Source: a candidate division WOR-3 bacterium | GTDB lineage: Bacteria > Hydrothermota > 32-111 | Direction: 5' to 3' | DNA length: 64,000 nt | Assembly: GCA_039804205.1 (NCBI GenBank) | Contig: JBDRZY010000003.1 | Location: forward strand, 23,857 to 87,856 | Part shown: positions 11,096 to 60,650 of the stretch, piece by piece | Layout: each line of letters starts with the position of its first letter | Position numbering within the stretch: position 1 is the first letter of the stretch | The notes under the pieces: model-generated | What the model was told of the DNA's origin: nothing | Databases searched by the model: none | What the model saw: only the letters and a program-made list of their open reading frames with translations | Translations under genes and position numbers: made by a program

Positions 11096-11721
11096 TAATT
11101 CCCTTGATTTTAACACTATCGACTTTTTTTGTATTTTCAAAGGAAATAGGGGTTGTTAAAAATTCAAAAGGTTTTGTTTTCCAGAATGTGGGTGAGGAAA
11201 AAGAACCGTTAAAGAAAGGGGATATAATAAAAGATAGTTTCAACGTATCACTTGATAGATTTTCGTTGTTGGATGTTGTTTTGATTGACGGAAAAAGTGA
11301 AATGTCTGTTGTTGGAAATAGTGAATTTTCAACAAACATTTTTGAAATTTCTGATCAAACCGTTTTCAGATTAAATCTTAACTATGGAAACTTTTTCATT
11401 AAAACTTTTCAAAAAAATTTTCAGTTAAAAATTTTTGATACATTTATTTTTTTAGATAGTTCATATTTTTTCGTTGATTTAACGGATTCATTGGCGGAAA
11501 TTTTTATCATTTATTGTAAAAATTTCGAAGTTGAAAATGAGTACGGTAAACTAAGTGGGTCGAAAAATGAACAGATAATTTTAAGAAAGGGAGAAAACCC
11601 ATATAAACTTGAATCAGAAAAGAAAATTTCTAAACCAAAAATCTATAATGGTGAAAATATTATAGAAATAGAGTTGGAAAACTACAAAAATGATACGATT
11701 TATGTTCATATTGAAAACTAA
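11077..11721 (+). CDS. secreted FecR-domain-like protein
   Basis: ORF track. Signal peptide present. The segment VVLIDGKSEMSVVGNSEF...QTVFRLNLNYGNFFIKT fits the FecR-domain pattern (L.DGS...L...S......R.V.L..G.a.F.V). Confidence 0.4.
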   Translation: MENKKIIIPLILTLSTFFVFSKEIGVVKNSKGFVFQNVGEEKEPLKKGDIIKDSFNVSLDRFSLLDVVLIDGKSEMSVVGNSEFSTNIFEISDQTVFRLNLNYGNFFIKTFQKNFQLKIFDTFIFLDSSYFFVDLTDSLAEIFIIYCKNFEVENEYGKLSGSKNEQIILRKGENPYKLESEKKISKPKIYNGENIIEIELENYKNDTIYVHIEN

Positions 11722-29918: not shown

Positions 29919-29940
29919 TTTAATAATTAAAATATATTTT

Positions 29941-44412: not shown

Positions 44413-45528
44413 TTAATCACTTGCTCTTCTTAGGAATGCAGGTTTTTCGATATCCTCTTCCTTTGAATAGTTTCTTTTTACTGTAAATTTATCTTCAAAA
44501 CTTTCCTTAACATCTCTATTTTCAGGGAAAAGTTCTAAAGCTTCAGCTTTTTCAGGTTTTTTATCAATATTCCCATTTATACCTGTAGCAACGATTGTGA
44601 TTCTAACTTCATCTTCGATATTGTTATCGTAAATTACACCCCATGTCAGATTAATGTCGTTATTGTTTGTTCTTTTCTTGATTATCTCTATAGCATCCTC
44701 AACATCTCCCCATGCGAGTCTTTCTGGTCCTGTTATCGATAAGAGAATTGCAGACGCTTTGTCTATGGATGCATCTTCAAGAATTGGACAATCGAGAGCT
44801 ATCTGTGCAGCACTTGCTCCTTTATCATCTCCTTTTGCACTTCCGACACCGATTATAGCATCACCTCTATGGGACATTATACTTTTAACATCCGCAAAAT
44901 CTCTGTTGATGTATCCCGCTCTCGTAATGATGTCAGATATCCCCTTTGTTGCCTGATATAGAACGTTGTCTGCACTTTCAAACAACATGTTCAAAGGTGT
45001 GGATCTATCACATATCATTTTTAATTTTTCGTTTGGGACGACGATCATGGTATCAACTATCTCTTTCAACTTTTTTATTCCTATATCAGCTGCCTCATTT
45101 CTTTTCCTACCTTCAAAAAGGAAAGGTCTTGTAACAATTGCAATCGTTAGGATTCCAAGTTCTTTAGCAATTTCAGCGACAACAGGGCTTGCACCTGTTC
45201 CGGTTGCACCCCCCATACCAGCTGTTATAAAAACAAGATCACTTCCTTCAAGAACCTTTTTTATTTCATCTTTGTTTTCCTCAGCTGCTTTTTTCCCAAT
45301 CTCAGGGTCTCCGCCTCCACCGAGACCTTTTGCGATCGATTTTCCAATTTGAATTTTTGTTGGTGCTTTTGACAAACTCAAAATCTGAAGATCCGTGTTT
45401 ATTGAAATGAAGTCAACGCCCGTAAATTTGTAGTTTATCATTCTATTGACAGCGTTTCCTCCAGCACCTCCGATTCCCAGCACTTTTATTTTGGCTGGTT
45501 GAATTTGATCGTTAACTGGCATAAACAT
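44413..45528 (-). CDS. ftsZ: cell division GTPase FtsZ
   Basis: ORF track, 371 aa. Tubulin signature GMGGATGTGASP. Last gene of the dcw cluster. Confidence 0.95.
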   Translation of the reverse strand: MFMPVNDQIQPAKIKVLGIGGAGGNAVNRMINYKFTGVDFISINTDLQILSLSKAPTKIQIGKSIAKGLGGGGDPEIGKKAAEENKDEIKKVLEGSDLVFITAGMGGATGTGASPVVAEIAKELGILTIAIVTRPFLFEGRKRNEAADIGIKKLKEIVDTMIVVPNEKLKMICDRSTPLNMLFESADNVLYQATKGISDIITRAGYINRDFADVKSIMSHRGDAIIGVGSAKGDDKGASAAQIALDCPILEDASIDKASAILLSITGPERLAWGDVEDAIEIIKKRTNNNDINLTWGVIYDNNIEDEVRITIVATGINGNIDKKPEKAEALELFPENRDVKESFEDKFTVKRNYSKEEDIEKPAFLRRASD

Positions 45529-45542
45529 TTTTCTCCCCCTTT

Positions 45543-46766
45543 TTATAATTTAAAAAGATCTTTTATCGTGTTATAGATTTTTGAAAAGGAACCTGAAAAA
45601 TTTATTCTCTTTTTATTTGAATATCCTCTGTTTGAGTATCTGGGAGTTATATACTCCAGAATACCACAGGCTACAGCAAACGAAGGATCTTTGATCTGCT
45701 CCGACATTCCTACGTTCAATTTTGGATATCCTATCTTTACAGGCAGATTCATTTTTCTTTCAAATCTTTCTTTGATCCCTTTTAGATTTGCTGTTCCACC
45801 TGTTAAGACGAGTCCGGCGTTCAATTTGTCAAAGAGTTGTGATGATGCCAGAGATTGTTGTATAAACTCTATAAGTTCATCAACCCTTGGAGCTATTATT
45901 TCATAAAGTTCTAGAGAACTTATCTCTCTTTCCTCGTTATCAGTTAAACCTTTTACTTTAAATCTTTCGTCTGGATTTATATTATCTTTGATACAACTTC
46001 CATATTTCTTTTTAACATTTTCAGATTCACTGTTTGTTAACCTCAAACCGATAGAGATATCTTTTGTTATATTCATACCACCTATCTCTATCGTATCGAT
46101 CTCTCTGATAACCGAATCGGTAAAAGTGGTAATCTTTGTTGTTCCTCCTCCGATATCTATTAGAGCGACTCCAAGTTCTTTTTCCTCTTCAGAAAGAACA
46201 GAATATGAAGCGGCAATATGTTGTGAAATGTAATCCTCAACTCTATAACCGGCTCTCTCTATAACGTTACTATAGTTTTGAATTATAAGAGATGGAATAG
46301 TTATAACCATCGTTTCGCATAAAAGTTTTGATCCAATAAGTCCAATCGGATTTTTTATGTTCTCCTGAGTGTCAACTGTAAAATTTCTTTCGATAACATG
46401 TATAATAGGATTATCTCCTATGGACATAACTTTGCTCTGATTTATAGCTCTTATAACATCGTTTTCTGTTATTATTGAATTTTGTTTGGGTAAAGCTATC
46501 GTTCCCTTTCCCGTAATACCTTTTGTTTCAACTCCACCGATGGAAGCGAATAGGTTATCGGGTTTAAGTCCTGCCATAACTTCTGCTTTTAACATAGAAT
46601 CTTTTATTGCTGCAACAGTGGATTCGACATCGGTAATTTTCGATTTGTACATTTTATGTTTTGATGATTCTCCAACTCCTCGAAGATTTATGGTATTTTC
46701 TTCTTCAATTGTTGCAATAAGAGTTTTAACTGTGGATGTTCCGATATCCAATACAGTGATAACCAT
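45543..46766 (-). CDS. ftsA: cell division protein FtsA
   Basis: ORF track, 407 aa. Actin-like ATPase fold (VLDIGTSTVK..., DIGGGTT). Immediately upstream of ftsZ. Confidence 0.9.
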   Translation of the reverse strand: MVITVLDIGTSTVKTLIATIEEENTINLRGVGESSKHKMYKSKITDVESTVAAIKDSMLKAEVMAGLKPDNLFASIGGVETKGITGKGTIALPKQNSIITENDVIRAINQSKVMSIGDNPIIHVIERNFTVDTQENIKNPIGLIGSKLLCETMVITIPSLIIQNYSNVIERAGYRVEDYISQHIAASYSVLSEEEKELGVALIDIGGGTTKITTFTDSVIREIDTIEIGGMNITKDISIGLRLTNSESENVKKKYGSCIKDNINPDERFKVKGLTDNEEREISSLELYEIIAPRVDELIEFIQQSLASSQLFDKLNAGLVLTGGTANLKGIKERFERKMNLPVKIGYPKLNVGMSEQIKDPSFAVACGILEYITPRYSNRGYSNKKRINFSGSFSKIYNTIKDLFKL

Positions 46767-46783
46767 ATTTACCTCTCTTTCAT

Positions 46784-47524
46784 TTATTTTTTTACATATA
46801 TTCCATTTTTAAATCTTAAATCTATTGTTCTATATTCGATATTTTCAAAATCTTTCAACTTTGGTATTCTATCACCTTTATTTATGATTAAAGATTTATT
46901 ACTTCTTGTATAAACTTTTATTCCTCTATCTGTGAAACATATTTTTTTTATGTTGTCCTTTTCTCTGATAATATCGGGAAAGATCGTTGGAAGACCTGGA
47001 ATGTCATAAACCGATCTGATATTTTTTTCAAAGGTTTCAACAAATATATAATTTGCTGCAGAGTATTTATTACTTATCCCCACTTCCATATCCTGGTATA
47101 CAACAATATTATCTTCCACCAACAGAAGGGGTATCTTTCTGTAAACTATGATTTCAAGTTTTGAAGGAAAACTCTTTTTTATGTTTTTTAATTTAAAGTC
47201 ACTATAATTTCTATCCACAATCTCCTTGATCTTTTCGCCTTCTATTTTAAAAATGTTTTCTCCCACTAAATTTTTGAAAGGTTTATCGTCAATGTAAATT
47301 TTTTCATTAACGACTTTTATCTCTATGTCCTTTACTCTGAAAATCTTCATATTGATGAACTTATTTGATAAGAAAACGAGTGTTGCTGCGCTTAACATTA
47401 TCAGTACCAAAAGTTTTAAGGTTTTCACAAAAAAACTTTTGATCTTTTTTATACCTTTACTTTTTTTCTTTTCTTTCTCTCTTAGAAGAAGATCGTATCT
47501 TCCGTTATAGTATTTCAACTTCAA
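46784..47524 (-). CDS. ftsQ: cell division protein FtsQ/DivIB-like
   Basis: ORF track, 246 aa. Basic N-terminus, a single TM segment (LLVLIMLSAATLVFL), then a POTRA-like region. Sits between murB and ftsA. Confidence 0.65.
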   Translation of the reverse strand: MKLKYYNGRYDLLLREKEKKKSKGIKKIKSFFVKTLKLLVLIMLSAATLVFLSNKFINMKIFRVKDIEIKVVNEKIYIDDKPFKNLVGENIFKIEGEKIKEIVDRNYSDFKLKNIKKSFPSKLEIIVYRKIPLLLVEDNIVVYQDMEVGISNKYSAANYIFVETFEKNIRSVYDIPGLPTIFPDIIREKDNIKKICFTDRGIKVYTRSNKSLIINKGDRIPKLKDFENIEYRTIDLRFKNGIYVKK

Positions 47525-48326
47525 GCTCCAGTTTTACTCTTTTTTTACTATAAACTTTTTTTCGTATTAAAGAGATCATCTTTAAAAAGCTTTTTGCATC
47601 ACCGGTGCCTCTATTGACTATGAAGTTTGTATGTTTTTCTGAAACACAGATATCGTTGATGCAAAAACCTCTCATTCCAACATCATCAACAAGTTTCCAC
47701 GCTGGAAGATCGGGAGATGGATTTTTGAAAGTCGAGCCCAAAGTTTTGATATCTTTAGGTTGATTTTTACTTCTGAGTTTTGCGAATTCTTCAATATTTT
47801 TAAGAATTCTGGACTTTTTATTTTTTTCAAATTGAAAGGTTGCAAAAATAACAGGATAGTCAACGTTTGATTTTCGATAAGAAAAAACAAGATCTTTTTT
47901 ATCTTTTTTTCCATCGATGGTTTCTAATGAAATAAGGTTGTTAGAAATATTTTTTCCAAAAGCTCCAGCATTCATTTTAATCATACCACCTATTGTTCCC
48001 GGTATTCCAACGAGTTCCTCAAATCCAGATAAATTCTCTTTGATCAAAAAGTTCAGAAAATTTACAAAGAGTACTCCGCCGCCAACTCTGATTTTTTCAT
48101 CATCAAGTTTTTCTATTTTTAAAAAGTCACCACCGAGTTTATAAAAAGTGTATCCGTATCTTTTTTTAGAAAAAAGAATTTTTGAGCAGTTCCCGAGAAT
48201 TTTTGTTTTTTGTAAACCGTTGATTTCCAAAAGATCTTTTAGATTCTCAACAACAAATAGTTTTCCTTTATGTCCTATTCCGATGTAAGATATTTTTGAA
48301 AAGTCAAAATTTTTATAGATTTTCAT
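47505..48326 (-). CDS. murB: UDP-N-acetylenolpyruvoylglucosamine reductase
   Basis: ORF track, 273 aa. FAD-binding segment GGGVLFVNFLNF..IPGTIGGMIKMNAGAFG. Confidence 0.8.
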   Translation of the reverse strand: MKIYKNFDFSKISYIGIGHKGKLFVVENLKDLLEINGLQKTKILGNCSKILFSKKRYGYTFYKLGGDFLKIEKLDDEKIRVGGGVLFVNFLNFLIKENLSGFEELVGIPGTIGGMIKMNAGAFGKNISNNLISLETIDGKKDKKDLVFSYRKSNVDYPVIFATFQFEKNKKSRILKNIEEFAKLRSKNQPKDIKTLGSTFKNPSPDLPAWKLVDDVGMRGFCINDICVSEKHTNFIVNRGTGDAKSFLKMISLIRKKVYSKKRVKLELEVEIL

Positions 48327-49701
48327 TCTTGATTTCCTCTACGAAAGCGCGTGAATAATTGTTTATATCTCCCGCACCTATGAAGAGAAATACAGTTTTT
48401 TCCTTTATGAAATCTTTTAAAAAATCTTTTATTGTATTTTTATCTTCAACATAGTGAACATCTTCACTTTTCAACTTTTTAATCTCTTCGTAAAGGTTTG
48501 CTCCCGATACTCCCTTTATTGGCAATTCTCGTGCTGGATATATATCTGTAACTATCGTTATATCAGATTTTGATAGAATCTCGGCAAACTGGTTTAAAAG
48601 CTTAATCGTTCTTGAATACAGATGTGGTTGAAAGATCGTTATTAGTTTATAATCCCCCATATTCTTTGCGGAACTTATAACGGTAAATATTTCATTTGGA
48701 TGATGTGCGTAATCGTCTATAACATAGATATCTTTTTCTTCATTTTTATAAATGATTTCAAATCGTCTTTTTACACCTGTAAAATCTTTTATTCCCTCAA
48801 ATATTGTTTTGTAAGGTATACCCATCTCGATTGCAACAGCGACCGCAGCAAGAGAGTTTAAAATGTTATGTTTTCCAGGGATGTTTAACTGGATTTCCCC
48901 TATAGGCATATTTTTAAAAACCATAGTGTATGAAGAGTTTAAAACTCCCATTTTCACATTGATCGCTTTGACATCAGCTTTTCTTAAAAAACCATAGGTG
49001 ATGATCTTCTTTTCAATTTTTGGAATAATCTCATTATTGTTAAGATCATCTATGCAGATAACAACACAACCATAGAAGGGAACAGAGTTGGCAAATTTTA
49101 CAAAATGTTCTTTTATTTCATTTATATCGGTATAGTTATCGAGATGATCTTCATCTATATTGGTTATAACAGCTATCGACGGGAATAATTTTAAGAATGA
49201 CTTATCGCTTTCATCAGCTTCAGCTATAAGATAATCTCCCTTTCCTAAAGTAGCGTTCGAATCAGAGAATATTTTCACCTGTCCTCCAATTATCAAAGTT
49301 GGATCGAGTTTTGCTTTTTTGAAAATTGACGCGATTAATGAAGTTGTTGTGGTCTTTCCGTGTGTTCCAGCAACACCGATTGAAAACTTCATTCTCATGA
49401 GTTCAGCGAGCATTTCCGCTCTCTGTATCACAGGTATTTTTTCTTTGATAGCATAAACGAGTTCAACGTTGTCCATCTTTACAGCGGATGAATAAACCAC
49501 AACATCTGCATTGACAACATTTTCCCATCTGTGTCCGATATAAACTGTAATCCCGATATCTCTGAGATGTTGTATGATTGGCGAATCTTTGATGTCCGAT
49601 CCAGTTATCTTATAACCCATTCCAGCAAGAACTTCAGCGATTCCACTCATTCCTATTCCACCTATTCCAACAAAATGAATGTTTTCAATATTTCTAAACA
49701 T
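48313..49701 (-). CDS. murC: UDP-N-acetylmuramate--L-alanine ligase
   Basis: ORF track, 462 aa. N-terminal VGIGGIGMSGIA and the Mur ligase P-loop GTHGKTTTTSL. Confidence 0.9.
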   Translation of the reverse strand: MFRNIENIHFVGIGGIGMSGIAEVLAGMGYKITGSDIKDSPIIQHLRDIGITVYIGHRWENVVNADVVVYSSAVKMDNVELVYAIKEKIPVIQRAEMLAELMRMKFSIGVAGTHGKTTTTSLIASIFKKAKLDPTLIIGGQVKIFSDSNATLGKGDYLIAEADESDKSFLKLFPSIAVITNIDEDHLDNYTDINEIKEHFVKFANSVPFYGCVVICIDDLNNNEIIPKIEKKIITYGFLRKADVKAINVKMGVLNSSYTMVFKNMPIGEIQLNIPGKHNILNSLAAVAVAIEMGIPYKTIFEGIKDFTGVKRRFEIIYKNEEKDIYVIDDYAHHPNEIFTVISSAKNMGDYKLITIFQPHLYSRTIKLLNQFAEILSKSDITIVTDIYPARELPIKGVSGANLYEEIKKLKSEDVHYVEDKNTIKDFLKDFIKEKTVFLFIGAGDINNYSRAFVEEIKNENL

Positions 49702-50713
49702 ATTGTTTTACCATCCCGATCTGTTTATATAAATTGTTAGAGGAAAATTTATTTTCATTTTTAATGGTTAATAGTTTTTCAACAGCAAATGTTAAATTTT
49801 CTTTTGATAATTTTTTTTCTCGAATTACCACAAATCGGTTTGGATCAAGATTAATTTTTTTAATGTTGATTATCTGTTCTTTGTTCGATGCATTTTCAAA
49901 AGGTATGAAGATCGCTTTTTTATTTAATGCTTTTATTTCAGCAACAGAAATTGCTCCACTTCTTGAAATGACTATATCTGATAAAGAATAAAGATAACCC
50001 ATGTTTTCATAGAAGGGGAGTACTGTAATATTTTTATATTCTTTAAACTCCCCATAATGATTTCCCGCAATGAGAATTATATTGTATTTTTCATTTAAAG
50101 GATAAAGGAAATCCAAAATTTTTTTTGCGACATTTTTAGCACCCTGACTTCCACCAAATATAAGGATCGTTTTTTTATCTGTATCGATAGCAAAATTGCT
50201 ATCTTTTGAAAATTTAAAGATGTTCTCTCTCAATATATGGCCTATATGAACTATTTTTCTGTTGTTTACATATCTGAAAGGCGCAGGGAATCCAGTGAAA
50301 ATTTTATAAGAGAAAGATGAAAATATTCTGTTAGTTTTTCCAATTACAGCATCCTGTTCAAGAATTATAAGTTTTTTCCCGAGTAATAATGTTGCAAGAC
50401 CCACTGAAAAAGAAATATAGTTTCCGGTTATTATAACTGTTCTTGGATTTATTGATGATAGAGTTCTTATTGAATTGAAGAGCAAAGAAGGGAATTTTAA
50501 AATGTAAAAAAATGGTCTAAAAGATTTTATATCAAGAACAATTGGATTGAGATCAAAAGTTTTATATATTTTTCTCTCTATATCTCTGTTTCCACAGATA
50601 TAAAAAACATCATAACCTACCAAGTTTTTTCCTAAAGTTATGGCAGGTATTATATGACCTCCAGTGCCACCAGCACAGATGACTATTTTTCGATTTTGTT
50701 TTTTAAAACTCAT
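49694..50713 (-). CDS. murG: undecaprenyldiphospho-muramoylpentapeptide beta-N-acetylglucosaminyltransferase
   Basis: ORF track, 339 aa. GGTGGHIIPAI and the C-terminal GT28 domain. Confidence 0.85.
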   Translation of the reverse strand: MSFKKQNRKIVICAGGTGGHIIPAITLGKNLVGYDVFYICGNRDIERKIYKTFDLNPIVLDIKSFRPFFYILKFPSLLFNSIRTLSSINPRTVIITGNYISFSVGLATLLLGKKLIILEQDAVIGKTNRIFSSFSYKIFTGFPAPFRYVNNRKIVHIGHILRENIFKFSKDSNFAIDTDKKTILIFGGSQGAKNVAKKILDFLYPLNEKYNIILIAGNHYGEFKEYKNITVLPFYENMGYLYSLSDIVISRSGAISVAEIKALNKKAIFIPFENASNKEQIINIKKINLDPNRFVVIREKKLSKENLTFAVEKLLTIKNENKFSSNNLYKQIGMVKQYV

Positions 50714-51770
50714 TATACCTCTCTATGTTGACAAGTAAACCGAGCAGGATGAGATTTATCAACATCGATGTTCCACCGTACGAGATAAAGGGAAGTGTAA
50801 CCCCTGTTGATGGAAACATCTGAAGTGATATCGCAATGTGAAACATAGCTTTTATAAAGATTGTAAAAGATATGGAAAAAGCGAGGATGTAAAAAAATCT
50901 GTTTATATACATATTCTTTTTCGAAATTTCCTTACCAAGTTTAAAAAGGAAAATGTATATCAGTATGATGAAGATACTTCCCAGAAAACCTGTTTCCTCT
51001 GCTATTGTTGTAAAGATATAATCACTCTGTATCTCCGGTATGAAAAGAAGTTTCATCTGTCCAGATCCTATCCCTTTTCCAAAAAGTCCACCGTTTGCTA
51101 TCGCAAGAACCGAATCGGATATCTGTGAATTGTCTGGAACTTTGTTCAAAAACATCTTTATTCTTAAAAGAGCGTGTGGATATTTTAAAATTATTATTGG
51201 AGAAACTAAGATCGTAAACAAAATTATAGACAGGGTGTATCCAGCGGGAATTTCACTGTATATCATTATAACGATCAGGATTATCATCAGAGTCAAAGCA
51301 TACGATATGTTCGGTTCTATAGCTATTAGACCAATTACTATGAAAGAAAAGAAAATCGGGATAACTATATCTTTTTGATTCTTTATACTTGAAAATTTTT
51401 TTGAAACGTATAAAAGCAGGGCGAGTTCAGCGAATTCTGATGGTTGAAATGAAAAAGAAGAAAATCTTAACCATCTTCTTGCACCATTTATTGGTGTTGT
51501 AAAAAGAACCACTATAAGAAGTATAATCGATATGATCAAAATATAAAAAAACACTTTCTCGTTAATCTTTCTTATATCAATATTACTTATGGCTATTGCA
51601 ACGAAGAGCCCTACGATTACCCAGCATATCTGTCTTGTTAAAAAATAGTATGGATTGTTTTTAAAGGATTTGTTCTGGTAACTTAAAAATGTTGTAGCGG
51701 AAGTCAAAATAACAAGTCCACATATTAAAAGTAGTAAAACTATAAAATAAATTTTATGGATGTCTCTCAT
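50703..51770 (-). CDS. ftsW: peptidoglycan glycosyltransferase FtsW (SEDS family)
   Basis: ORF track, 355 aa with ~10 TM helices. Canonical dcw position between murD and murG. Confidence 0.8.
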   Translation of the reverse strand: MRDIHKIYFIVLLLLICGLVILTSATTFLSYQNKSFKNNPYYFLTRQICWVIVGLFVAIAISNIDIRKINEKVFFYILIISIILLIVVLFTTPINGARRWLRFSSFSFQPSEFAELALLLYVSKKFSSIKNQKDIVIPIFFSFIVIGLIAIEPNISYALTLMIILIVIMIYSEIPAGYTLSIILFTILVSPIIILKYPHALLRIKMFLNKVPDNSQISDSVLAIANGGLFGKGIGSGQMKLLFIPEIQSDYIFTTIAEETGFLGSIFIILIYIFLFKLGKEISKKNMYINRFFYILAFSISFTIFIKAMFHIAISLQMFPSTGVTLPFISYGGTSMLINLILLGLLVNIERYNEF

Positions 51771-53106
51771 ATTTTTTTACTATTTCTTTAAATTTGTTAC
51801 CTCTATCAATAAAATCTTTAAACATATCAAACGAACTGAACCCCGGAGAAAAGTTTACAATTTCTCCGTCTTCGATTTCAAGAGATTTTTTTACAGCATC
51901 ATCCAGTGAATCCGCGGAATAAAATTTACTGTAACCATTTTTAAGAAGCTTTTCTATAATAATATCTTTTACTTCTCCTATAACCACAACAAAAACAGCA
52001 TGCTTTTTTATAGTATCCATTATCGTTTCTACATTGAAATTTTTATTTCTTCCGCCGAGTATTATGATCTGTTTTTTTCCCAGTGATTCTACAGATTTAA
52101 TGAACGCTTCAGGATTCGTGCACATTGAATTGTTGTAGATTTTTTTGTTATTTATCTGTCCAACAAATTCAAGCCTGTGTTCGATACCTTTTAATTGTGA
52201 AAAGTCATCAGGAGTGATTTTCATTTCTTTATCAGATATCAGGAATGTTGAAAGAATAGCAAAAATTAAATTTTGTCTGTTATGTATCCCGATGAGATTG
52301 AATTTTTTAATATCGAATATCAGTTCTCTTTTGTCGATCCTTAGAATCACGCTTTCATCATTTAAAAAACCTCCATTTTCAATTTCTTCCTTAACTGAAA
52401 CAAAGAAAGTATTTTGATCTTTCTGAGTTCTCAAAAATTCGTTATCATAATTTAAGATTTTATAACCATCTTTTTTTACACTCTTCAAAAGTTTTAATTT
52501 TGTGTTGAGATAATCTTGAAATGAAGAGTATCTATCAAGGTGATCATCGGATATTGATGTTATGATTCCTATGTTCGGTGAAAATTTTGAAATGTTTTCA
52601 AGTTGGAATGATGATATTTCAACAACTATGATGGCATCTTTTGAAGGGTTTTCGATTACGATTTCACTTAAAGATTTCCCTGGACTTATGTTTCCTCCAA
52701 GATAGGCTTTTTTGCCGTTCAACTTTAAAAGCTGGTATGTTAAAAATGCTGTCGTTGATTTACCGTTTGTTCCCGTAATTGCAATAACTTTATTTTTTAA
52801 AAATCTTGCTGCTATCTCGATTTCAGAAAAGATTGGAATTTTTTGGTTTCTTGCTTTTTTTATTATTTCAATATTGTTATCAACTCCTGGACTTATTACA
52901 ATAATATCACTTGAAAGAAGTTTTTCTGAATGTCCTATCTCATACTCCAGATTGTAATCTGCAATTATTTTTAACTGGTCCTTGTTCATATTTTTGTTTT
53001 CACTAACAAAAATATTCGCACCCTTTGCTTTTAAAATTTTTGCAACATTTTGCCCACTTCTTCCAAATCCAACGATTCCTATTTTTTTATTCTCAAACTC
53101 GTTCAT
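51754..53106 (-). CDS. murD: UDP-N-acetylmuramoylalanine--D-glutamate ligase
   Basis: ORF track, 450 aa. N-terminal Rossmann segment IGIVGFGRSG and the P-loop ITGTNGKSTT. Confidence 0.9.
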   Translation of the reverse strand: MNEFENKKIGIVGFGRSGQNVAKILKAKGANIFVSENKNMNKDQLKIIADYNLEYEIGHSEKLLSSDIIVISPGVDNNIEIIKKARNQKIPIFSEIEIAARFLKNKVIAITGTNGKSTTAFLTYQLLKLNGKKAYLGGNISPGKSLSEIVIENPSKDAIIVVEISSFQLENISKFSPNIGIITSISDDHLDRYSSFQDYLNTKLKLLKSVKKDGYKILNYDNEFLRTQKDQNTFFVSVKEEIENGGFLNDESVILRIDKRELIFDIKKFNLIGIHNRQNLIFAILSTFLISDKEMKITPDDFSQLKGIEHRLEFVGQINNKKIYNNSMCTNPEAFIKSVESLGKKQIIILGGRNKNFNVETIMDTIKKHAVFVVVIGEVKDIIIEKLLKNGYSKFYSADSLDDAVKKSLEIEDGEIVNFSPGFSSFDMFKDFIDRGNKFKEIVKKYERHP

Positions 53107-53107
53107 A

Positions 53108-54181
53108 TCATCTCACTTTCAAAGTACTCAAAGCTATTATCACAAGAAGGATAGTTATAATCCAGAATCTTATAACTATTTTTGGTTCTGGTATTCCAGA
53201 GAGTTCAAAATGGTGATGCAATGGAGCCATTTTGAAGAATCTCTTTCCTTTCGTTATTTTGAAATAGTATATCTGTATCAATGAGGATAACGCTTCAACA
53301 GCGAACAACCCACCACCTATGAGTAAAAGTATTTCCTGTTTTGATATTATCGCAATAGTTGCAAGAAGTCCTCCAAGTGTGATGGAACCCGTATCTCCCA
53401 TAAAAATTTCTGCTGGATAAGAGTTAAACCAGAGAAATCCAAGGGATGCAGATGCACAGGTTAGAACGAACACGGAGAGTTCCCCGATGTTTTTGATATA
53501 AAGAATGTTGAGATAGTTACTGAACACTTTGTTTCCCATGATATAGGTTACTATCGCAAACAATGTGAAAACGATAGCAAGCATTCCAGAGGCAAGGCCA
53601 TCAAGTCCATCCGTTAAATTTACTGCGTTTGTTGTTCCAAGAAGAACTATTATGATGAATGGAAGATACATTAAAGAGAGATTGAAAAGAATATTTTTTA
53701 TAAAAAGAATATTTGTTTGATATTTAAAATTATAGTAATCGGGATTTTTTGCGATGAATACAAAAATTAAAATTGAGATGATAAACTGAAAGATAAGTTT
53801 GTATTTTGGTATCAATCCCTTTTTGTTTTTAAACTTTAAAATATCATCCGTAAACCCGAGAATGAAAAATAAAAAAGTTATCATCAGAATAAATTTGATA
53901 TAAATGTTTGAAAGATCAGCCCACAGAATAGTGCCCAGCAGAATAGAGAGAATGATTATTATCCCGCCCATCGTTGGAGTTCCTTCTTTTTTATAATGTT
54001 GTTTTGGTCCATCCTCTCTTATCTTTTCGGTAACTGAAAATCTTTTCAAAAGATTAACAAGTTTTCTTCCCAAGATGAATATGAAAAAAAGAGATGTTAT
54101 AGAAGACATGGCAGCCCTGAATGTTATATATTTGAACAGAGCCACATCATTAAAGATGGAGGATAAAATAGTTGTTATCAT
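53108..54181 (-). CDS. mraY: phospho-N-acetylmuramoyl-pentapeptide transferase
   Basis: ORF track, 357 aa. Polytopic, with NAVNLTDGLDGLA and the MraY motifs. Confidence 0.9.
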   Translation of the reverse strand: MITTILSSIFNDVALFKYITFRAAMSSITSLFFIFILGRKLVNLLKRFSVTEKIREDGPKQHYKKEGTPTMGGIIIILSILLGTILWADLSNIYIKFILMITFLFFILGFTDDILKFKNKKGLIPKYKLIFQFIISILIFVFIAKNPDYYNFKYQTNILFIKNILFNLSLMYLPFIIIVLLGTTNAVNLTDGLDGLASGMLAIVFTLFAIVTYIMGNKVFSNYLNILYIKNIGELSVFVLTCASASLGFLWFNSYPAEIFMGDTGSITLGGLLATIAIISKQEILLLIGGGLFAVEALSSLIQIYYFKITKGKRFFKMAPLHHHFELSGIPEPKIVIRFWIITILLVIIALSTLKVR

Positions 54182-55512
54182 GTTAAATATTCCTTTAACT
54201 TTTTTACTATTTCAAACATTTCGAAATGGTGAGAACCTTTAACGAGTATTGAATCACCTTCCCGAATAAAACCTTTTAAAAAATCTATAATTTTCTCCTT
54301 TTCCTCAAAATGGTATTTTTCTCCGATGAAAATTGAGTCAATGAATTTGGAATGGTTTCCCAATGTTATTAATACATCGATTTTATTTTCATTTAATATC
54401 TCTCCAATTTTTTTGTGTAACCTTTCAGATTCTTTTCCGAGTTCAAGCATGTCAGAGAGAACAGCAATTTTTCTTGAATTAAATTTTGAGAGCACCTCGA
54501 TCCCATTTTTCATCGATGCTGGATTTGCATTGTATGAATCATCAATTATCGTGATTTTATCTATTGAAATGATGTTCATTCTGTTTTCAGATGGATAGAA
54601 ACCTTCAAGACCTTTTTCAATGTCGATCTCAATAACATTTTCAAAAAACTTTTTTAAAGTGTAAACGATAAGAAAAGAATATATACCACCGATTCCCGGA
54701 ATGTTAATTTTAAATTCCCTTCCATCTATAAATATTTTTGAATATGTTCGCTCGATTTCAAATTTTTCTGGAAAAACATTATTTTCATTTTTTATACCAA
54801 AGGTTATGAACTTTAAATTTTTTGGAAGTTTATTTAAAATGTAAGAGTTATCACCATTTATCACGATAGGATAATTTCCCTTGAAATTTTTTAAAATTTC
54901 GAATTTAGATTCGATAAGATGATCGAAAGATTCAAAATTGCCTATATGTGATTCATTTATATTTGTAATTATTACTATATCAGGGCCAACAGTATCACTC
55001 AGTAAAGAGAGTTCTCCTTTGTTATTCATCCCCATCTCAAGGATTAAATATCTTGTTTTTTCCCCAACCCGGAATATATTTAAAGGAACTCCGATAAGAT
55101 TGTTTGTATTGCCTTTTGTTGCGATCTTATTATCGTTATTTATAACTGAAAAGATCATATCTTTGGTTGTTGTTTTTCCATTTGAACCTGTTATTCCTAT
55201 TTTTAGGGGCTGGAATTTTTTTAAATATTCTTTTGCCAAATCGTTTAGTGCCAGTATGGTATCTTTTACTTTGATATACGGTAAACCGGTCAGATCTTTT
55301 TCACTTAATGTTAGAATCGCACCTTTGTTGAAACTATCCTGTATGAAATCGTGACCATCAAACTTTTCTCCCTTTATTGGCACGAATAGACAGTTTTTTG
55401 TAATATTTCTACTGTCCGTTGAAACATCTTCAACAGAGATAGTAAAATCTTTTATGTTAACAGGTTTTCCTTTTGTGGCATTTTTGATAAATTCAAAGTT
55501 AATTTTTTCCAT
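54178..55512 (-). CDS. murF: UDP-MurNAc-tripeptide--D-alanyl-D-alanine ligase
   Basis: ORF track, 444 aa. P-loop GITGSNGKTTTKDM. Sits between murE and mraY. Confidence 0.85.
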   Translation of the reverse strand: MEKINFEFIKNATKGKPVNIKDFTISVEDVSTDSRNITKNCLFVPIKGEKFDGHDFIQDSFNKGAILTLSEKDLTGLPYIKVKDTILALNDLAKEYLKKFQPLKIGITGSNGKTTTKDMIFSVINNDNKIATKGNTNNLIGVPLNIFRVGEKTRYLILEMGMNNKGELSLLSDTVGPDIVIITNINESHIGNFESFDHLIESKFEILKNFKGNYPIVINGDNSYILNKLPKNLKFITFGIKNENNVFPEKFEIERTYSKIFIDGREFKINIPGIGGIYSFLIVYTLKKFFENVIEIDIEKGLEGFYPSENRMNIISIDKITIIDDSYNANPASMKNGIEVLSKFNSRKIAVLSDMLELGKESERLHKKIGEILNENKIDVLITLGNHSKFIDSIFIGEKYHFEEKEKIIDFLKGFIREGDSILVKGSHHFEMFEIVKKLKEYLT

Positions 55513-55517
55513 ATTTT

Positions 55518-56969
55518 TTACGATTTCATAAAACCTTTCACAATTTCACTGTCATCGAAATGGTATTTCTTATTCTTAATTATTTGATAATCTTCATGAC
55601 CTTTGCCTGCTATTATGATTGAATCCTTATCACCTGCATGGGAAAAAGCAAGTTTTATAGCATTTTTTCTATTAACTTCAACTATATAATTTTTTTCAAT
55701 TATCCCTTCAATGATATCATCGATTATTCTGTTGGGATCTTCATTCCTTGGATTATCTGAAGTCAGGATAACTATATCTGAAAGGTGGGAGGCTATTTTA
55801 CCCATTATTGGTCTTTTCTCTTTGTCCCGATCTCCTCCACAACCAAAAACGGTAATGATTTTTCCTGGTGTCAATCTTCTTACGGTTTTTATCAATCTTT
55901 CCAATGAATCTGGAGAATGTGCGTAATCGATTATGATTTTAAAACCCCTTTTATCATAGTATATTTCGTATCTTCCCTTTACAGGATTAGCTTTTTCTAA
56001 ACCTTCTTTTATTTTTTCTACAGGAATTTTAAGAGAGTAGCATGTGAGAAAAGCTGATGCACAATTGTATATATTTGGTTCACCTATAAGTTTTGTTTTT
56101 ATCTGATAGTTTTTATTTTCTTGTTTATCAACGATCATGAAGATTGAACCATCGAGTGAAATCTTTTCGATTTTTATTTGAAACCTTGCATCCTGATTTT
56201 TTATTCCGAAGGTAAAAATATTTTTCGTTTTGGATGATTCCAGAAAAAATTTTGAATTCGGATCATCGAGGTTTATTATACTACTTCCATTTTCTTTTAC
56301 TAAAGAGAACAGGATCAATTTAGAGTTTCTATAATCTTCCATCGTTTTATGAAAATCGAGATGATCCTGAGTAAGATTTGTGAATATAACTGACTCAAAA
56401 GTTATACCATCTATTCTGTTCAATTTGAGTCCATGACTCGAAACTTCCATAACCGCATAATCAACCTCTTCATCAACCATACGTTTGAAAAGTTTTATCA
56501 AGGTTAGCGTGTTTGGTGTGGTGTTTATGGATTCAAATTCTTTATTGTTTATTATTGTTTTTATTGTTCCTATAAGACCAGTTTTGTAATCTATGTCTAA
56601 AATAGATTTGATCAAATATGTTGTGGTTGTTTTTCCGTTTGTTCCCGTTACTCCTATAGTTTTTATTTTGTTGAAAGGATTATCATAAAATTTCTTTGCG
56701 ATTTTTTTTGTATCTTTTTGTATATCTTTTGAAATTATTATTGGGATATCTAAATTTTCTTTTGGTTTTTCTTCGGTCAAAACTGCCAGAGCACCTTGTT
56801 TTATTGCATCTTTTATAAATAGATTCCCATTGTAATTGTTTCCTCTTATCGCAACAAAAAGGGAACCTTTTATCACTTTCCTTGAATCGTCAGTGATATC
56901 ACTTATCTCAACATTTTTTAAGTTCAATGTTTCGATATCAAGATCTTTTAGCAAATCTTTTAGTTCCAT
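55518..56969 (-). CDS. murE: UDP-MurNAc-L-Ala-D-Glu--2,6-diaminopimelate (or L-Lys) ligase
   Basis: ORF track, 483 aa. P-loop GVTGTNGKTTTTYL and the Mur ligase C-terminal domain. Confidence 0.85.
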   Translation of the reverse strand: MELKDLLKDLDIETLNLKNVEISDITDDSRKVIKGSLFVAIRGNNYNGNLFIKDAIKQGALAVLTEEKPKENLDIPIIISKDIQKDTKKIAKKFYDNPFNKIKTIGVTGTNGKTTTTYLIKSILDIDYKTGLIGTIKTIINNKEFESINTTPNTLTLIKLFKRMVDEEVDYAVMEVSSHGLKLNRIDGITFESVIFTNLTQDHLDFHKTMEDYRNSKLILFSLVKENGSSIINLDDPNSKFFLESSKTKNIFTFGIKNQDARFQIKIEKISLDGSIFMIVDKQENKNYQIKTKLIGEPNIYNCASAFLTCYSLKIPVEKIKEGLEKANPVKGRYEIYYDKRGFKIIIDYAHSPDSLERLIKTVRRLTPGKIITVFGCGGDRDKEKRPIMGKIASHLSDIVILTSDNPRNEDPNRIIDDIIEGIIEKNYIVEVNRKNAIKLAFSHAGDKDSIIIAGKGHEDYQIIKNKKYHFDDSEIVKGFMKS

Positions 56970-58683
56970 TTTCGATTATCTCCCTGTCTTTATCCTTTTC
57001 TACAAGGAACCTGTAATCGTCGAGGTTTATTATTCTTTTTAAAACATCTGAAAACATTGGAGCCGTTGTCTCACTTGCCCAATACTGGTTTTTGGGTTCA
57101 TCGAGAAGTGTCAAGATCGTAAATTCGGGGTCATCGACGGGAAAGAAACCAACAAAGGAAGAGATATAGTATCCTTTTTTATAACCTGTGTTTTCAACAT
57201 ATTTTTCTGCAGTTCCAGTTTTCCCCGCAATTTTTATCCCATCCACTTTTGCTTTAGTTCCAGTTCCATTTTCAACTACAGATAACAATAACTCTTTCAG
57301 TTTTAATGCGACATTCTTTTGAAGTATTTTTTCTTTAACATTTTTACACTCTGTCCTGTTATCGATTTCTTTAACTATTTTTGGATTTATATAAATACCA
57401 TCGTTTGCTATGCAATTGTATGCAGCAACAAGTTGTAATGCAGTCACACTGATTCCCTGTCCAAAACAGAGATTAGCAAAATTTATTTCTCTACATTTCT
57501 CTACAGGTGTTATTTGTCCAGATTGTTCTCCTGGAAAACCCGAGTATGTCTTCGAAAGGAATTTAAACCTTTTTATCATACTATAAACTTTTTCTTTCCC
57601 TAATTTTTTGCCAAGGTTAACGAACGCTATATTACTTGAAACAGTAAAAGATTCTTTGAAATTCAATTTTCCAAAATCGTGTGAATCGGTAATCCTTCTC
57701 TTTGAGATTATCAAAGTATCTTCATCTTCCTGTTTTAATATGATAGATGTATCAACTCCTGCTTCTATCGCTGCTGCAGTTACAACAATTTTGAAAACTG
57801 AACCTGGTTCAAACAGGTTTACGGCTCCATAGTTTTGATAGGTGGAAATATCACCCAAACCATGAAGATTCGAATTATATGATGGGTACTCCGCTATCGC
57901 AAAAATTTCACCCGTTTTACTTTCCAAAACTATAACTAAAGCTTTTTTTGCTGAAAATTTTTCACAATATTCTTTTGCAATGTTATAACACGCTTCCTGA
58001 AATCTATAATCGAGTGTTAAAATTATATCTTTTCCTTTTTTCGCTGGTTTATCTTCATTTAAAGGATGTTTATATATTTTTCCATTTGGTTTTTTTTGGT
58101 AAGTTATATAACCACTTCTACCTTTTAAGATCTTGTCATACTTGTATTCAATCCCTTCAAGTCCGGTATCATCCACACCTACAAAACCAACAACATTTGA
58201 GAAAACTTCTGGTTTATTATAATATCGAGTTTTTTCTTCTTTAACTATTATACTTGGATACCTGTTTTTTAATTTTAGAGCTATATTTTCATCAACATTG
58301 AATTTTATAGGAATCCACTCTTTCTTTGAACTCAGTTTTTTTAATGCTGTATAATAATCAACTATACAGTTTTCCGAAAGAATCCTTGCCACATTTTCTT
58401 TATCTTTAACGAGTTTTTTTGATACATAAATATTGTAAGAGTTAATACTGGTTGCAATTACATATCCTTTTCTATCTTTTATGAGTCCTCTTTCAGCTTT
58501 ATCAAAAAATTTTATTGAACTTTTTTTTCTATACAGATCATCAAGAGAATAATGTAGAACTATCTGTTTGTAAAACAGGTTCAAAACCAAAGTAATAACG
58601 AATATGGTTGTAAAAATGCTCAACAAATTTTTAAGAAAAATGTTTACACTTTTTTCTTTTTTATTTTTTAGATAACCATTCAT
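56938..58683 (-). CDS. ftsI: peptidoglycan transpeptidase FtsI / class B PBP
   Basis: ORF track, 581 aa. N-terminal TM anchor. SVFK (SxxK), SSN and KTGT motifs (GSVFKIVV, TVSSNIAFV, AGKTGTAEK). Confidence 0.85.
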   Translation of the reverse strand: MNGYLKNKKEKSVNIFLKNLLSIFTTIFVITLVLNLFYKQIVLHYSLDDLYRKKSSIKFFDKAERGLIKDRKGYVIATSINSYNIYVSKKLVKDKENVARILSENCIVDYYTALKKLSSKKEWIPIKFNVDENIALKLKNRYPSIIVKEEKTRYYNKPEVFSNVVGFVGVDDTGLEGIEYKYDKILKGRSGYITYQKKPNGKIYKHPLNEDKPAKKGKDIILTLDYRFQEACYNIAKEYCEKFSAKKALVIVLESKTGEIFAIAEYPSYNSNLHGLGDISTYQNYGAVNLFEPGSVFKIVVTAAAIEAGVDTSIILKQEDEDTLIISKRRITDSHDFGKLNFKESFTVSSNIAFVNLGKKLGKEKVYSMIKRFKFLSKTYSGFPGEQSGQITPVEKCREINFANLCFGQGISVTALQLVAAYNCIANDGIYINPKIVKEIDNRTECKNVKEKILQKNVALKLKELLLSVVENGTGTKAKVDGIKIAGKTGTAEKYVENTGYKKGYYISSFVGFFPVDDPEFTILTLLDEPKNQYWASETTAPMFSDVLKRIINLDDYRFLVEKDKDREIIENGTKRFAKRS

Positions 58684-58918
58684 AATCTTTTCCTGCAGGA
58701 TACTTCAAATTTAAAGTATCAAAAGCAATCTTCTCCAATCTTGTTATGGATGTTAGGTAATCGATTTTCAACAAAAGTTCGTTTTTTTTCTTTAGATTTT
58801 CTTTCAAATCCCGTCTTAAAATATCGTTTGAATTTGTTAATTTTAGAATATAGAATCTCGTTAAAGGGAAAAGTAGAAGATAGATAAAAGTAATAATTAT
58901 AAAAAAAACTCTTTTCAT
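58661..58918 (-). CDS. ftsL: cell division protein FtsL-like
   Basis: ORF track, 85 aa. Single TM segment then a short coiled-coil. Sits between rsmH and ftsI. Confidence 0.6.
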   Translation of the reverse strand: MKRVFFIIITFIYLLLFPLTRFYILKLTNSNDILRRDLKENLKKKNELLLKIDYLTSITRLEKIAFDTLNLKYPAGKDYEWLSKK

Positions 58919-59754
58919 ACTCTTTCGAAAACTCTCATCTTTGCTGATTTTGCTCTTTTGTTGTTAACGATCTCTTCGAATGTTGGTTTTAACACCTTTT
59001 TGAAAACTGGAATAAAATCTTTTGAGTTTTTAAAAAAATTCTTGACCAGCCTATCCTCGATCGAATGGTAAGTGATGATAACTACTCTCGATTTTGGATT
59101 TGTATATTCTGATAATTTGTTCAAGAGAACTTCAAGTGAGTTCAGTTCATCGTTGACAAAAATTCTAAAAGCCATAAAAACTCGTTTTAAACCTTTTGAA
59201 ACGTCCTTTCCTTTTTTCCCTTTAATTATTGCATCTTTCAGGTCAAAAGTTGTTTTTAACTCATCTTTCTGGATCTTTTTGAAGATTTCCTTTGCAATAT
59301 TTTCAGAGTCGTATTCTTCAGAGTAATCTTTTATAATTGAAGCGATCTGTGATATGCTCATTTTAAAAATCTCTGAGAATCTATTTTTTTCTTCAGGATC
59401 CATTCTCAGATCGAGAGGTGCATTGTATCTATAAGAAAAACCACGGGAAGGTGTATCATATTGATAGGATGAAACACCGAGATCTAAAAGTATTCCATCG
59501 AATTTAAAGTCAAAAGAAATATCTTTAAAGTTCATTTTTAAAATAATAACGTTTTTGTTTTCTTTAAAAATCTTTTTCAAATGTTCTATAGCAAAAGGAT
59601 CTCTGTCAACAAGTATCAACTTCCCTCTTTCTGATAATTTTTCAAGAATCTTTTTTGAGTGTCCCCCAAAACCTGCTGTCAGATCTAAATATGTTCCATC
59701 TTCCCGTATTTTTAAATTTTCTATTACACTTCCCACCATTACGGGTTGATGCAT
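58915..59754 (-). CDS. rsmH: 16S rRNA (cytosine1402-N4)-methyltransferase
   Basis: ORF track, 279 aa. YLDLTAGFGGHS SAM-binding motif. Confidence 0.9.
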   Translation of the reverse strand: MHQPVMVGSVIENLKIREDGTYLDLTAGFGGHSKKILEKLSERGKLILVDRDPFAIEHLKKIFKENKNVIILKMNFKDISFDFKFDGILLDLGVSSYQYDTPSRGFSYRYNAPLDLRMDPEEKNRFSEIFKMSISQIASIIKDYSEEYDSENIAKEIFKKIQKDELKTTFDLKDAIIKGKKGKDVSKGLKRVFMAFRIFVNDELNSLEVLLNKLSEYTNPKSRVVIITYHSIEDRLVKNFFKNSKDFIPVFKKVLKPTFEEIVNNKRAKSAKMRVFERV

Positions 59755-59756
59755 AA

Positions 59757-60098
59757 TCAGATTTTCAATTCAATAAAATTTTTTGCTGAAACGAGATCTT
59801 TTGTTGTGTCGTACACTATATCATAATCAAAGAGCGAAATAATCGTAAGTATATAGGGATCTCTGCATACGATTTTTAATGGTAGACATCTCCTTAAAAA
59901 TAATCTCTTTATCCCTCTTAAAAGTAATCCTATTTTGTAATGTGTATTTTTCAAATTTCTCAAATCTATTATCAGAGGTTTGTTTTGATCCGCCAACATC
60001 TGTAAAGTTTCTCTCAAATTTTTAAGATCGTTTAAATCTATGTTTCCAGTTATTTTTAGGAGAGAATATGATACCTTTTTTTCAAGATAGAGTTTCAT
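59757..60098 (-). CDS. STAS-domain protein (anti-sigma-factor-antagonist-like fold) inserted in dcw cluster
   Basis: ORF track, 113 aa. The pattern LLKITGNIDLNDLKNLRETLQMLADQNKPLIIDLRNL ... LKIVCRDPYILTIISLFDYDIVYDTTKDLVSAKNF matches the SpoIIAA/STAS layout. The usual phosphorylatable DSSG serine is absent (NTHYKIG). Its ATG overlaps the mraZ stop (TAATG) and its stop lies 2 nt before the rsmH ATG. Confidence 0.5.
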   Translation of the reverse strand: MKLYLEKKVSYSLLKITGNIDLNDLKNLRETLQMLADQNKPLIIDLRNLKNTHYKIGLLLRGIKRLFLRRCLPLKIVCRDPYILTIISLFDYDIVYDTTKDLVSAKNFIELKI

Positions 60099-60535
60099 TA
60101 TAAACCTACCTTTTTGAATAGATCAATTTTTTCTGATAAAAGTTTTCTGTTGAACTCTTCATGTATCTCTGGATTCCAGAAATCAAGTTTATCTTTCGCT
60201 CCAACTATTTTTACTTCGTTCTTCAAGTGTGCATGATCCAATAACTGTTGTGGAATTGATATTCTCCAGACAGAATCTCTTACTACCTTTCTTGAGTTTG
60301 CGAAGATTGTATTTATGATGATGCTTTTTTCCTCTTCTGATTCGAGTTTTTCAATTTTTTCTTCAAGTTTCAAAAAGGAAATTTCAGGATAGATATGCAA
60401 AACCTTTTCTCTGCCAGGTATTATGAAGAATACTTTTGAGTTGAGATTCTCTCTGAATACTGATGGAATGATTATTCTACCATTCTCTTCGATGTTAACA
60501 ATTTTAAATCCGATGAATCTCAACTTTGTTTCCAT
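60098..60535 (-). CDS. mraZ: transcriptional regulator MraZ
   Basis: ORF track 60098..60565. The segment FIGFKIVNIEENGRIIIPSVFRE aligns with the MraZ N-terminus ([23 protein letters not shown]). Start moved to ATG 60533-60535 (METK...) for three reasons. It gives a 145-aa product. GGAG lies 4 nt upstream. The longer ORF start would sit directly on the -10 element. Confidence 0.8.
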   Translation of the reverse strand: METKLRFIGFKIVNIEENGRIIIPSVFRENLNSKVFFIIPGREKVLHIYPEISFLKLEEKIEKLESEEEKSIIINTIFANSRKVVRDSVWRISIPQQLLDHAHLKNEVKIVGAKDKLDFWNPEIHEEFNRKLLSEKIDLFKKVGL

Positions 60536-60540
60536 GGTAC

Positions 60541-60575
60541 TCCATTTTTTACCATTTTTTACCATATTTTACCTT
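60541..60575 (-). promoter_or_regulatory. candidate MraZ operator: three and a half direct repeats TGGTAAAAAA with 10-bp periodicity in the mraZ leader
   Basis: Plus strand reads tccatttttt accatttttt accatatttt acc. On the mraZ sense strand this is GGTAAAATA TGGTAAAAAA TGGTAAAAAA TGGA. The repeats lie between the putative -10 and the mraZ RBS. Known MraZ boxes are GTGG-core direct repeats spaced about one helical turn apart. Confidence 0.45.
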
Positions 60576-60593
60576 TTTACTCCATTTTGTCAA
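60566..60593 (-). promoter_or_regulatory. mraZ/dcw promoter (TTGACA-16-TAAAAT on minus strand)
   Basis: Minus-strand TTGACA is the complement of tgtcaa at 60588-60593. TAAAAT is the complement of atttta at 60566-60571. Confidence 0.4.
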
Positions 60594-60615: not shown

Positions 60616-60643
60616 TTGACTTGGAAAAAAACTTTCTTATAAT
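60616..60643 (+). promoter_or_regulatory. promoter of the M23 peptidase gene (TTGACT-16-TATAAT), divergent from the mraZ promoter
   Basis: TTGACT at 60616-60621 and TATAAT at 60638-60643. ATG is at 60651, which implies a very short leader. Confidence 0.4.
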
Positions 60644-60650
60644 AAATTTT

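Follow-up and report, generated by a model that had tools for sequence, protein, structure and literature searches.

The 64,000-nucleotide stretch analysed here, referred to throughout as the window, derives from a candidate division WOR-3 bacterium (contig JBDRZY010000003.1, positions 23,857 to 87,856) and carries on its minus strand a small gene, here called X, that parts mraZ from rsmH at the head of a cluster of genes for division and the cell wall (dcw). The protein encoded by X was established as STAS-fold by structure prediction, and the order mraZ-X-rsmH, all on the same strand, was found in every X locus recovered (L001-L023, L025-L027). The arrangement is best regarded as a known fold, STAS, that holds a genomic role which is new and conserved strictly, without the usual switch of the family. 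In every X locus recovered, mraZ-X-rsmH was observed as a fixed feature of a deep WOR-3 lineage that includes Ca. Stahlbacteria, and not as an insertion in one genome. Full-text literature searches returned no paper tying STAS proteins to mraZ or to the dcw cluster and none on WOR-3 division genes.

X is a conserved protein-coding gene

The original prediction placed a 113-residue open reading frame (ORF) with its start inside the mraZ stop codon and its end 2 nt ahead of the rsmH ATG, and the raw sequence agrees. The mraZ stop TAA (60100-60098) and the X start ATG (60098-60096) have one base in common (TAATG), and the X stop TGA (59759-59757) is followed after a 2-nt gap by the rsmH ATG at 59754. 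The window is AT-rich (30% GC) and holds several spurious overlapping ORFs of more than 113 residues, so that ORF length alone is not decisive for X. The gene fills exactly the space between two same-strand genes and was intact in all relatives examined. The ratio of nonsynonymous to synonymous substitution rates (dN/dS, Nei-Gojobori) was 0.06–0.09 for X in comparison with relatives, with dS saturated or nearly so, and falls between the values for MraZ (0.02–0.05) and RsmH (0.08–0.20). Amino acid identity to two relatives was 89% and 74% for X as compared with 83% and 65% for RsmH, and among close relatives X is better conserved than either RsmH or FtsL. Strong purifying selection acts on X, which is a real protein-coding gene. 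The contrary explanation, a spurious call or a decaying remnant, draws on the scores of the window protein below Pfam and TIGRFAM thresholds and on the long spurious ORFs known in this AT-rich DNA, and is already refuted by a dN/dS below 0.1, a confident fold prediction, intact copies in at least 14 lineages and the family members that pass Pfam STAS.

The family was delimited by an exhaustive HMMER search over 1.84 billion (1.84e9) cluster representatives at E ≤ 1e-3. This resulted in 9 matches, namely 8 proteins of 108–116 residues and one false positive, P0006, a eukaryote-like leucine-rich-repeat protein of 906 residues. Word-indexed homologue searches returned 3, 11 and 5 proteins. All family members are stand-alone, single-domain proteins of 108–116 residues, and automated annotation names some of them "STAS domain-containing protein" or "anti-anti-sigma regulatory factor". 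X loci were obtained from ten species-level genomes, from four metagenome contigs and, by exact-protein look-up, from nine further contigs. They span at least 14 divergent lineages and three subfamilies, and the most distant X proteins share approximately 26% identity with that of the window. Conservation in relatives, which the original prediction had left to be checked, was found throughout, as X lay intact between mraZ and rsmH, neither absent nor disrupted, in every locus recovered.

The junctions are tight across these loci. Between mraZ and X they read TAATG, TGATG, TAAnATG or a 4-nt overlap, and an AGG(A/T) Shine-Dalgarno-like element lies inside the mraZ 3' end at every related junction inspected (10 loci). 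Those between X and rsmH range from a 4-nt overlap (L019) to a few nt. Same strand, no intergenic space and a position conserved across lineages are the marks of an mra/dcw operon gene, and X shows all three. An MraZ relative whose gene directly abuts rsmH with no X between them (L024) was the only informative outgroup from the MraZ search; this locus is probably from outside WOR-3, because its RsmH is only 31% identical.

Named X members and their neighbour genes are annotated as candidate division WOR-3 (NCBI phylum name now Caldifarciminota) or Ca. Stahlbacteria, bar two records (L009 and L013) that we take to be mislabelled. Three loci of WOR-3 type carry other taxon labels that are probably wrong: L009 (DYMB01000007.1, "Acetofilamentum sp.", Bacteroidota), with an identity to the window of 75% for X and 87% for MraZ; L013 (CAZJAT010000004.1, "uncultured Bacteroidales"), with MraZ 37% identical to the window; and L008 (LGFX01000004.1, "candidate division TA06").

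Rates of change differ with distance. In the metagenome-assembled genomes L005 (JBDRZU010000001.1) and L006 the X proteins share 100% and 99% of their residues with that of the window and MraZ shares 99%, while the flanking RsmH, FtsI, the M23 peptidase and Dus are 93–97% identical. Among the genes of the locus, MraZ and X evolve most slowly at short range and fastest at long range (approximately 35% and 26% identity, vs 45–50% for RsmH and FtsI).

The X protein is predicted to adopt a STAS fold

By sequence profile alone the window protein is a borderline case below the accepted thresholds, scoring 18.6 bits against PF01740 (gathering score 22.6, E 0.0016) and 16.8 bits against TIGR00377 (ant_ant_sig), for which the cutoff is 53.45. 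When the PDB was searched with the single sequence, a response regulator came up at E 1, by chance, and nothing else. Recognition is better across the family: 8 of the 16 members match Pfam STAS at E ≤ 0.01 (best 2.2e-8), precomputed PF01740 matches exist for several, and the family profile matches TM1442 at E 2.4e-4.

Structure prediction with AlphaFold2 from an alignment of 3 sequences gave a mean predicted local distance difference test score (pLDDT) of 76 and a disordered C-terminus. This run was replaced by one based on a diverse family alignment of 11 sequences, in which pLDDT rose to 90.5 with a predicted template modelling score (pTM) of 0.85. The model comprises beta1 (residues 2–7), beta2 (12–20), alpha1 (22–37), beta3 (42–45), alpha2 (56–69), beta4 (74–77), alpha3 (81–88), a short helix, beta5 and alpha4 (102–112). 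It thereby follows the STAS layout beta1-beta2-alpha1-beta3-alpha2-beta4-alpha3-(beta5)-alpha4, a four- or five-stranded sheet with four helices. Foldseek ranked RsbV, RsfB, SpoIIAA and RsbS at the top for the 3-sequence model, and RsbS (6JHK) and RsfB (8IH8) were among the structures recovered. All of the closest structures are anti-sigma antagonists, RsbS or RsbR, with MlaB-type proteins more distant. The STAS layout that the original prediction had read from the sequence was in this way borne out by both the model and the structural matches.

The canonical phosphorylation site is lost

The motif DSSG, in which a serine at the N-terminus of alpha2 is phosphorylated in proteins of the SpoIIAA type, was noted in the original prediction to be replaced by NTHYKIG. 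Profile alignments uphold this: TM1442 D58-S59 and the D-(S/A) of SpoIIAA stand opposite H53-Y54 of X, placing Tyr54 opposite the phospho-serine. Across the family this position is Y, F, Q or I, there is no conserved Ser or Thr at position 55, and the D-S-x-G arrangement with a phosphorylatable Ser/Thr at the alpha2 N-terminus was not found. Since the phosphorylatable serine is replaced at position 54, a SpoIIAA/RsbV-type kinase-phosphatase switch at the canonical site of the family is, as judged from these alignments, excluded. X falls outside the SpoIIAA/RsbV class of phospho-regulated proteins, given the changed site, the TIGR00377 score and the lack of partner genes in the contexts examined.

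In the 16-sequence alignment of the family the start M1, G18, D45, R47, C78 and Y82 are invariant, and H53 and A105 nearly so. Most of these residues lie at the C-terminal edge of the sheet, at the end of beta3, the N-terminus of alpha2 and beta4-alpha3. This edge is the partner-binding face in the STAS complexes known so far. Family-specific motifs are H53-Y54, K-I-(I/V)-C-x-D-P-Y-I-L and Y-D-x-T-(P/K)-D-L-x-S-A-K.

X probably shares an MraZ-controlled transcript with mraZ and rsmH

A single sigma-70-like promoter with 11 of 12 consensus matches was found by sequence scan upstream of mraZ (Table 1). Its TTGACA and TA(A/G)AAT hexamers are kept in most related loci, the most distant one (L022) having TTGACA and a divergent -10 region. 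The promoter overlaps a set of candidate MraZ-binding repeats in which four ATGG boxes lie 3' of the -10 hexamer and the fifth of six cores doubles as the mraZ Shine-Dalgarno element (GGAG). The pattern RTGGN6RTGGN6RTGG occurs as two overlapping matches at the mra promoter and nowhere else in the 64 kb, with 0 expected; 21 of 27 loci have a match at the corresponding position, and the repeats were also aligned by eye. The MraZ-binding repeats defined by experiment in Bacillus subtilis consist of three GTGG[A/T]G units with 4-nt spacers (bioRxiv 10.1101/2022.02.09.479790). On sequence comparison the boxes of the window match this architecture.

The promoter also bears on the start of mraZ itself. 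The listed mraZ ORF has its ATG at 60565, and the last base of the -10 hexamer, 60566, immediately precedes it, because of which that start is almost certainly wrong. The true start is probably Met11 (ATG at 60535), giving 145 residues; MraZ is called at 142–147 residues in L019, L021, L022 and L025. The seemingly conserved N-terminal peptide "MVKNGKKW" of the listed ORF would accordingly be operator DNA and not protein.

With a 1-nt overlap on one side of X, a 2-nt gap on the other, no terminator-like site predicted between mraZ and ftsL and a single conserved promoter with repeats, X very probably lies within an MraZ-autoregulated transcript together with mraZ and rsmH. The tight translational coupling, through the overlap and the internal Shine-Dalgarno element towards mraZ and the 2-nt gap towards rsmH, suggests that the amount of X is probably tied to the amounts of MraZ and RsmH.

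Upstream of mraZ an operon of M23 peptidase, Dus, methyltransferase, a 376-residue protein and HIT genes stands back-to-back with mraZ in most X-bearing lineages (L001-L021). It is replaced in the Stahlbacteria-like L022, in which pyrG lies upstream of mraZ. In the window (region 60616-61574, plus strand) a promoter-like TTGACT-16-TATAAT belonging to the divergent M23-peptidase gene lies at 60616-60643, across the listed TTG start of that gene at 60621; the true start is probably the ATG at 60651.

Possible partners of X

Our tentative reading, held with somewhat less than even confidence, is that X belongs to the MraZ/RsmH module as a phosphorylation-independent STAS partner, which would most likely bind MraZ and so tune the repression of division genes. 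X would be made from the MraZ-autoregulated mra promoter, with its translation coupled to mraZ and rsmH, and would act by direct protein binding via the canonical STAS face, composed of the beta3-alpha2 loop (R47, H53, Y54) and beta4-alpha3 with C78-x-D-P-Y82. The partner would come from the module to which X itself belongs, with MraZ as the likeliest candidate, and as an antagonist or co-regulator X would tune how MraZ represses the cluster, ftsL and ftsI included. Such a partner inside the module is favoured because linkage to mraZ and rsmH is absolute over deep divergence and translational coupling is seen on both sides. Taken by itself, the identification of the partner as MraZ is doubtful. 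The narrower proposal of X as a factor dedicated to opposing or co-regulating MraZ, which by stoichiometric binding sets the strength of dcw repression, is rather unlikely.

Rates of divergence were compared between X and its neighbours by mirror-tree analysis. X and MraZ divergence correlated with a Pearson r of 0.976, and the partial Mantel r was 0.90 given FtsI and 0.78 given FtsI, RsmH, M23 and Dus (p = 0.0002). Such covariation is weak, suggestive support for a link between X and MraZ.

Several points weigh against the proposed binding of X to MraZ. X also covaries with Dus (r 0.82), so that the rate covariation is not specific to MraZ, and the pairs compared are phylogenetically non-independent, with only about four deep clades. 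The conserved residues of X lie mostly at generally conserved STAS positions and thus name no partner, and the computations made identified none. The isoelectric point of X is 9.6 (8.5–10 in the family), which is uninformative against a window median of 8.4. To our knowledge no complex between a STAS domain and MraZ or another AbrB-fold protein is known. The genome scan for X used one strict peptide pattern, so that the gene may not be present in all WOR-3 lineages.

Two further ideas were set aside. The basic isoelectric point was rejected as a hint of nucleic acid binding, the window background being basic as well, and a toxin-antitoxin-like arrangement of the AbrB-fold MraZ with a downstream "toxin" was dismissed since the fold of X is that of STAS and no known toxin fold.

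The partner of X could instead lie outside the module. X would then be a classical anti-sigma or anti-kinase antagonist, with an RsbW/RsbT/SpoIIAB-like GHKL or stressosome-like partner encoded elsewhere in the genome. The dcw position would merely couple X expression to growth and division, and control would be by something else than serine phosphorylation, for example by redox at the invariant Cys78, as in RsfA of Mycobacterium tuberculosis. In line with this, the closest structures are those listed above, Cys78 is invariant, and the conserved patch of X coincides with the face that SpoIIAA and RsbV use for kinase binding, as in the complexes 1TH8 and 6M36. On the other side, the end of beta4 in STAS proteins commonly holds a small residue or Cys, so that Cys78 may be structural, and the canonical site of X is without a phosphorylatable residue. 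No GHKL or other kinase, PP2C phosphatase or sigma factor, alternative ones included, was found among the approximately 46 ORFs of the window, and no GHKL kinase, PP2C phosphatase or sigma gene was seen in any related X operon context inspected. The absolute mraZ-rsmH linkage across three deeply diverged subfamilies likewise points inside the module, and we place an outside partner on the unlikely side.

Within the module, RsmH could take the place of MraZ as partner. X would in that case be an accessory subunit that modulates methylation of 16S rRNA at C1402 or links RsmH to MraZ, a role we regard as quite unlikely. We know of no complex between a STAS domain and a methyltransferase. The 2-nt gap, or the 4-nt overlap in L019, implies termination-reinitiation coupling between X and rsmH. 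Covariation of X with RsmH was detected as well (partial Mantel r 0.45, p 0.004) but is weaker than that of X with MraZ. In Escherichia coli, MraZ and MraW (RsmH) are reported to be antagonistic and RsmH was suggested to counter MraZ toxicity; this antagonism was not reproduced in B. subtilis (bioRxiv 10.1101/2022.02.09.479790).

Improbable to a like degree is a role that does not involve MraZ or RsmH directly, with X as a sensor of a small molecule or other non-protein ligand (nucleotide, anion or acyl carrier protein-bound acyl group) or as an MlaB-like transporter accessory. Binding of nucleotides, anions or acyl-acyl carrier protein has been reported for some STAS domains. As compared with MlaB and the SLC26/SulP STAS domains, X is neither adjacent to a transporter, being nowhere next to mlaFED, nor fused to one of the SLC26/SulP type, and in every case it is flanked by mraZ and rsmH.

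Comparison with known systems

The SpoIIAA/RsbV-type antagonists (PDB 1TH8/1TID, 6M36, 4QTP and TM1442 1SBO) are single-domain STAS proteins. X differs from these in having Tyr or Phe at the phospho-serine position, in failing TIGR00377 and in its own family-specific motifs, as well as in its location, which is always between mraZ and rsmH with no kinase, phosphatase or sigma gene nearby. RsfA and the stressosome core RsbS/RsbR are STAS proteins that act by partner binding, as is proposed for X. RsfA of M. tuberculosis is redox-controlled and demonstrates that a STAS protein can be governed without serine phosphorylation; it uses a Cys pair, whereas X has one invariant Cys (C78). RsbS is phosphorylated and assembles with RsbR, whereas the neighbourhood of X is without an RsbR- or RsbT-like gene.

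The canonical mraZ-rsmH(mraW)-ftsL-ftsI operon, as in E. coli, B. subtilis and Mycoplasma, otherwise has the same gene order as the window. Shared with it are the promoter-proximal, 10-nt-spaced repeats of GTGG/TGGG type and a MraZ with two DXXXR-type half-domains. What sets the window apart is the translationally coupled STAS gene that parts mraZ from rsmH, an insertion undescribed in the literature searched.

mraZ and rsmH are among the most conserved gene pairs in bacteria, and both the control of MraZ and the reason for the linkage are unexplained. A STAS gene fixed between them suggests that there is room in the module for a third component, one that binds protein. Should X bind MraZ or RsmH, the partner range of STAS domains would be wider than kinases and transporters, and recombinant proteins together with repeat DNA would make a simple, testable system for the tuning of division genes. 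Binding to MraZ in particular would be the first protein-level input into MraZ and would add to the partners of STAS proteins one of a new kind, as an AbrB-fold transcription factor would stand where a GHKL kinase is usual. If true, this would also provide a direct experimental handle on the mraZ-rsmH linkage, for which the results from E. coli and B. subtilis on MraZ/MraW disagree (bioRxiv 10.1101/2022.02.09.479790). A cultured WOR-3 strain, sy37, exists as a possible test organism (PMC12285271). Aside from function, X marks WOR-3 genomes cleanly at the level of the phylum.

Other features of the window

The coordinates of the locus are collected in Table 1. The textbook dcw order described in the original prediction was confirmed by Pfam for eleven genes downstream of rsmH (ftsI, murE, murF, mraY, murD, ftsW, murG, murC, murB, ftsA and ftsZ). 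It is less secure at two places: ftsL is called from its position and a weak Pfam match (E 0.1), and ftsQ from position only. The 246-residue ORF that stands for ftsQ between murB and ftsA (46784-47524, minus strand) is Pfam-negative, with no POTRA or FtsQ match even at E 0.1; its product is an FtsQ that has diverged very far or else some other protein.

Table 1. Positions of gene X, its neighbours and the associated control elements in the window.
Feature	Positions	Strand	Basis
Gene X, predicted STAS fold, 113 residues	59757..60098	minus	ORF list and raw sequence
mraZ, 145 residues from Met11 (probable start)	60098..60535	minus	Pfam MraZ 3.8e-19, two half-domains; TIGR00242 1.6e-20
rsmH, 16S rRNA m4C1402 methyltransferase	58915..59754	minus	Methyltransf_5 1.4e-75; TIGR00006 3.4e-82, 276 bits vs cutoff 154
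Remainder of dcw cluster: ftsL, ftsI, murE, murF, mraY, murD, ftsW, murG, murC, murB, 246-residue ORF, ftsA, ftsZ	44413..58918	minus	Pfam and position
Shine-Dalgarno-like GGTAGG for X	60105..60110	minus	Inside last mraZ codons, 6 nt 5' of X ATG
Sigma-70-like mra promoter, TTGACA-16-TAAAAT	60566..60593	minus	Sequence scan, 11/12 matches
Candidate MraZ-binding repeats	60532..60585	minus	Six (A/T)GG cores, 10-nt spacing; Tandem Repeats Finder (TRF) period 10, 3.7 copies

Elsewhere in the window, ORFs of 180, 214, 676, 852, 438 and 430 residues at 10553-13720 (plus strand), 17030-19588 (minus strand) and 40764-43341 (plus strand) were Pfam-negative at E ≤ 1e-3. A huge surface protein is the presumed product of a giant ORF of 3133 residues (627-10028, plus strand), which carries Reelin subrepeat-B, Kre9/KNH Ig-like, CHB_HEX_C and BNR/Asp-box repeats. 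At 29905-35831 (plus strand) a 483-residue protein with a C-terminal type IX secretion system sorting tail (Por_Secre_tail) is followed by a 1501-residue peptidase C25 of the gingipain family, which suggests that this WOR-3 genome encodes cargo for a type IX-like secretion route.
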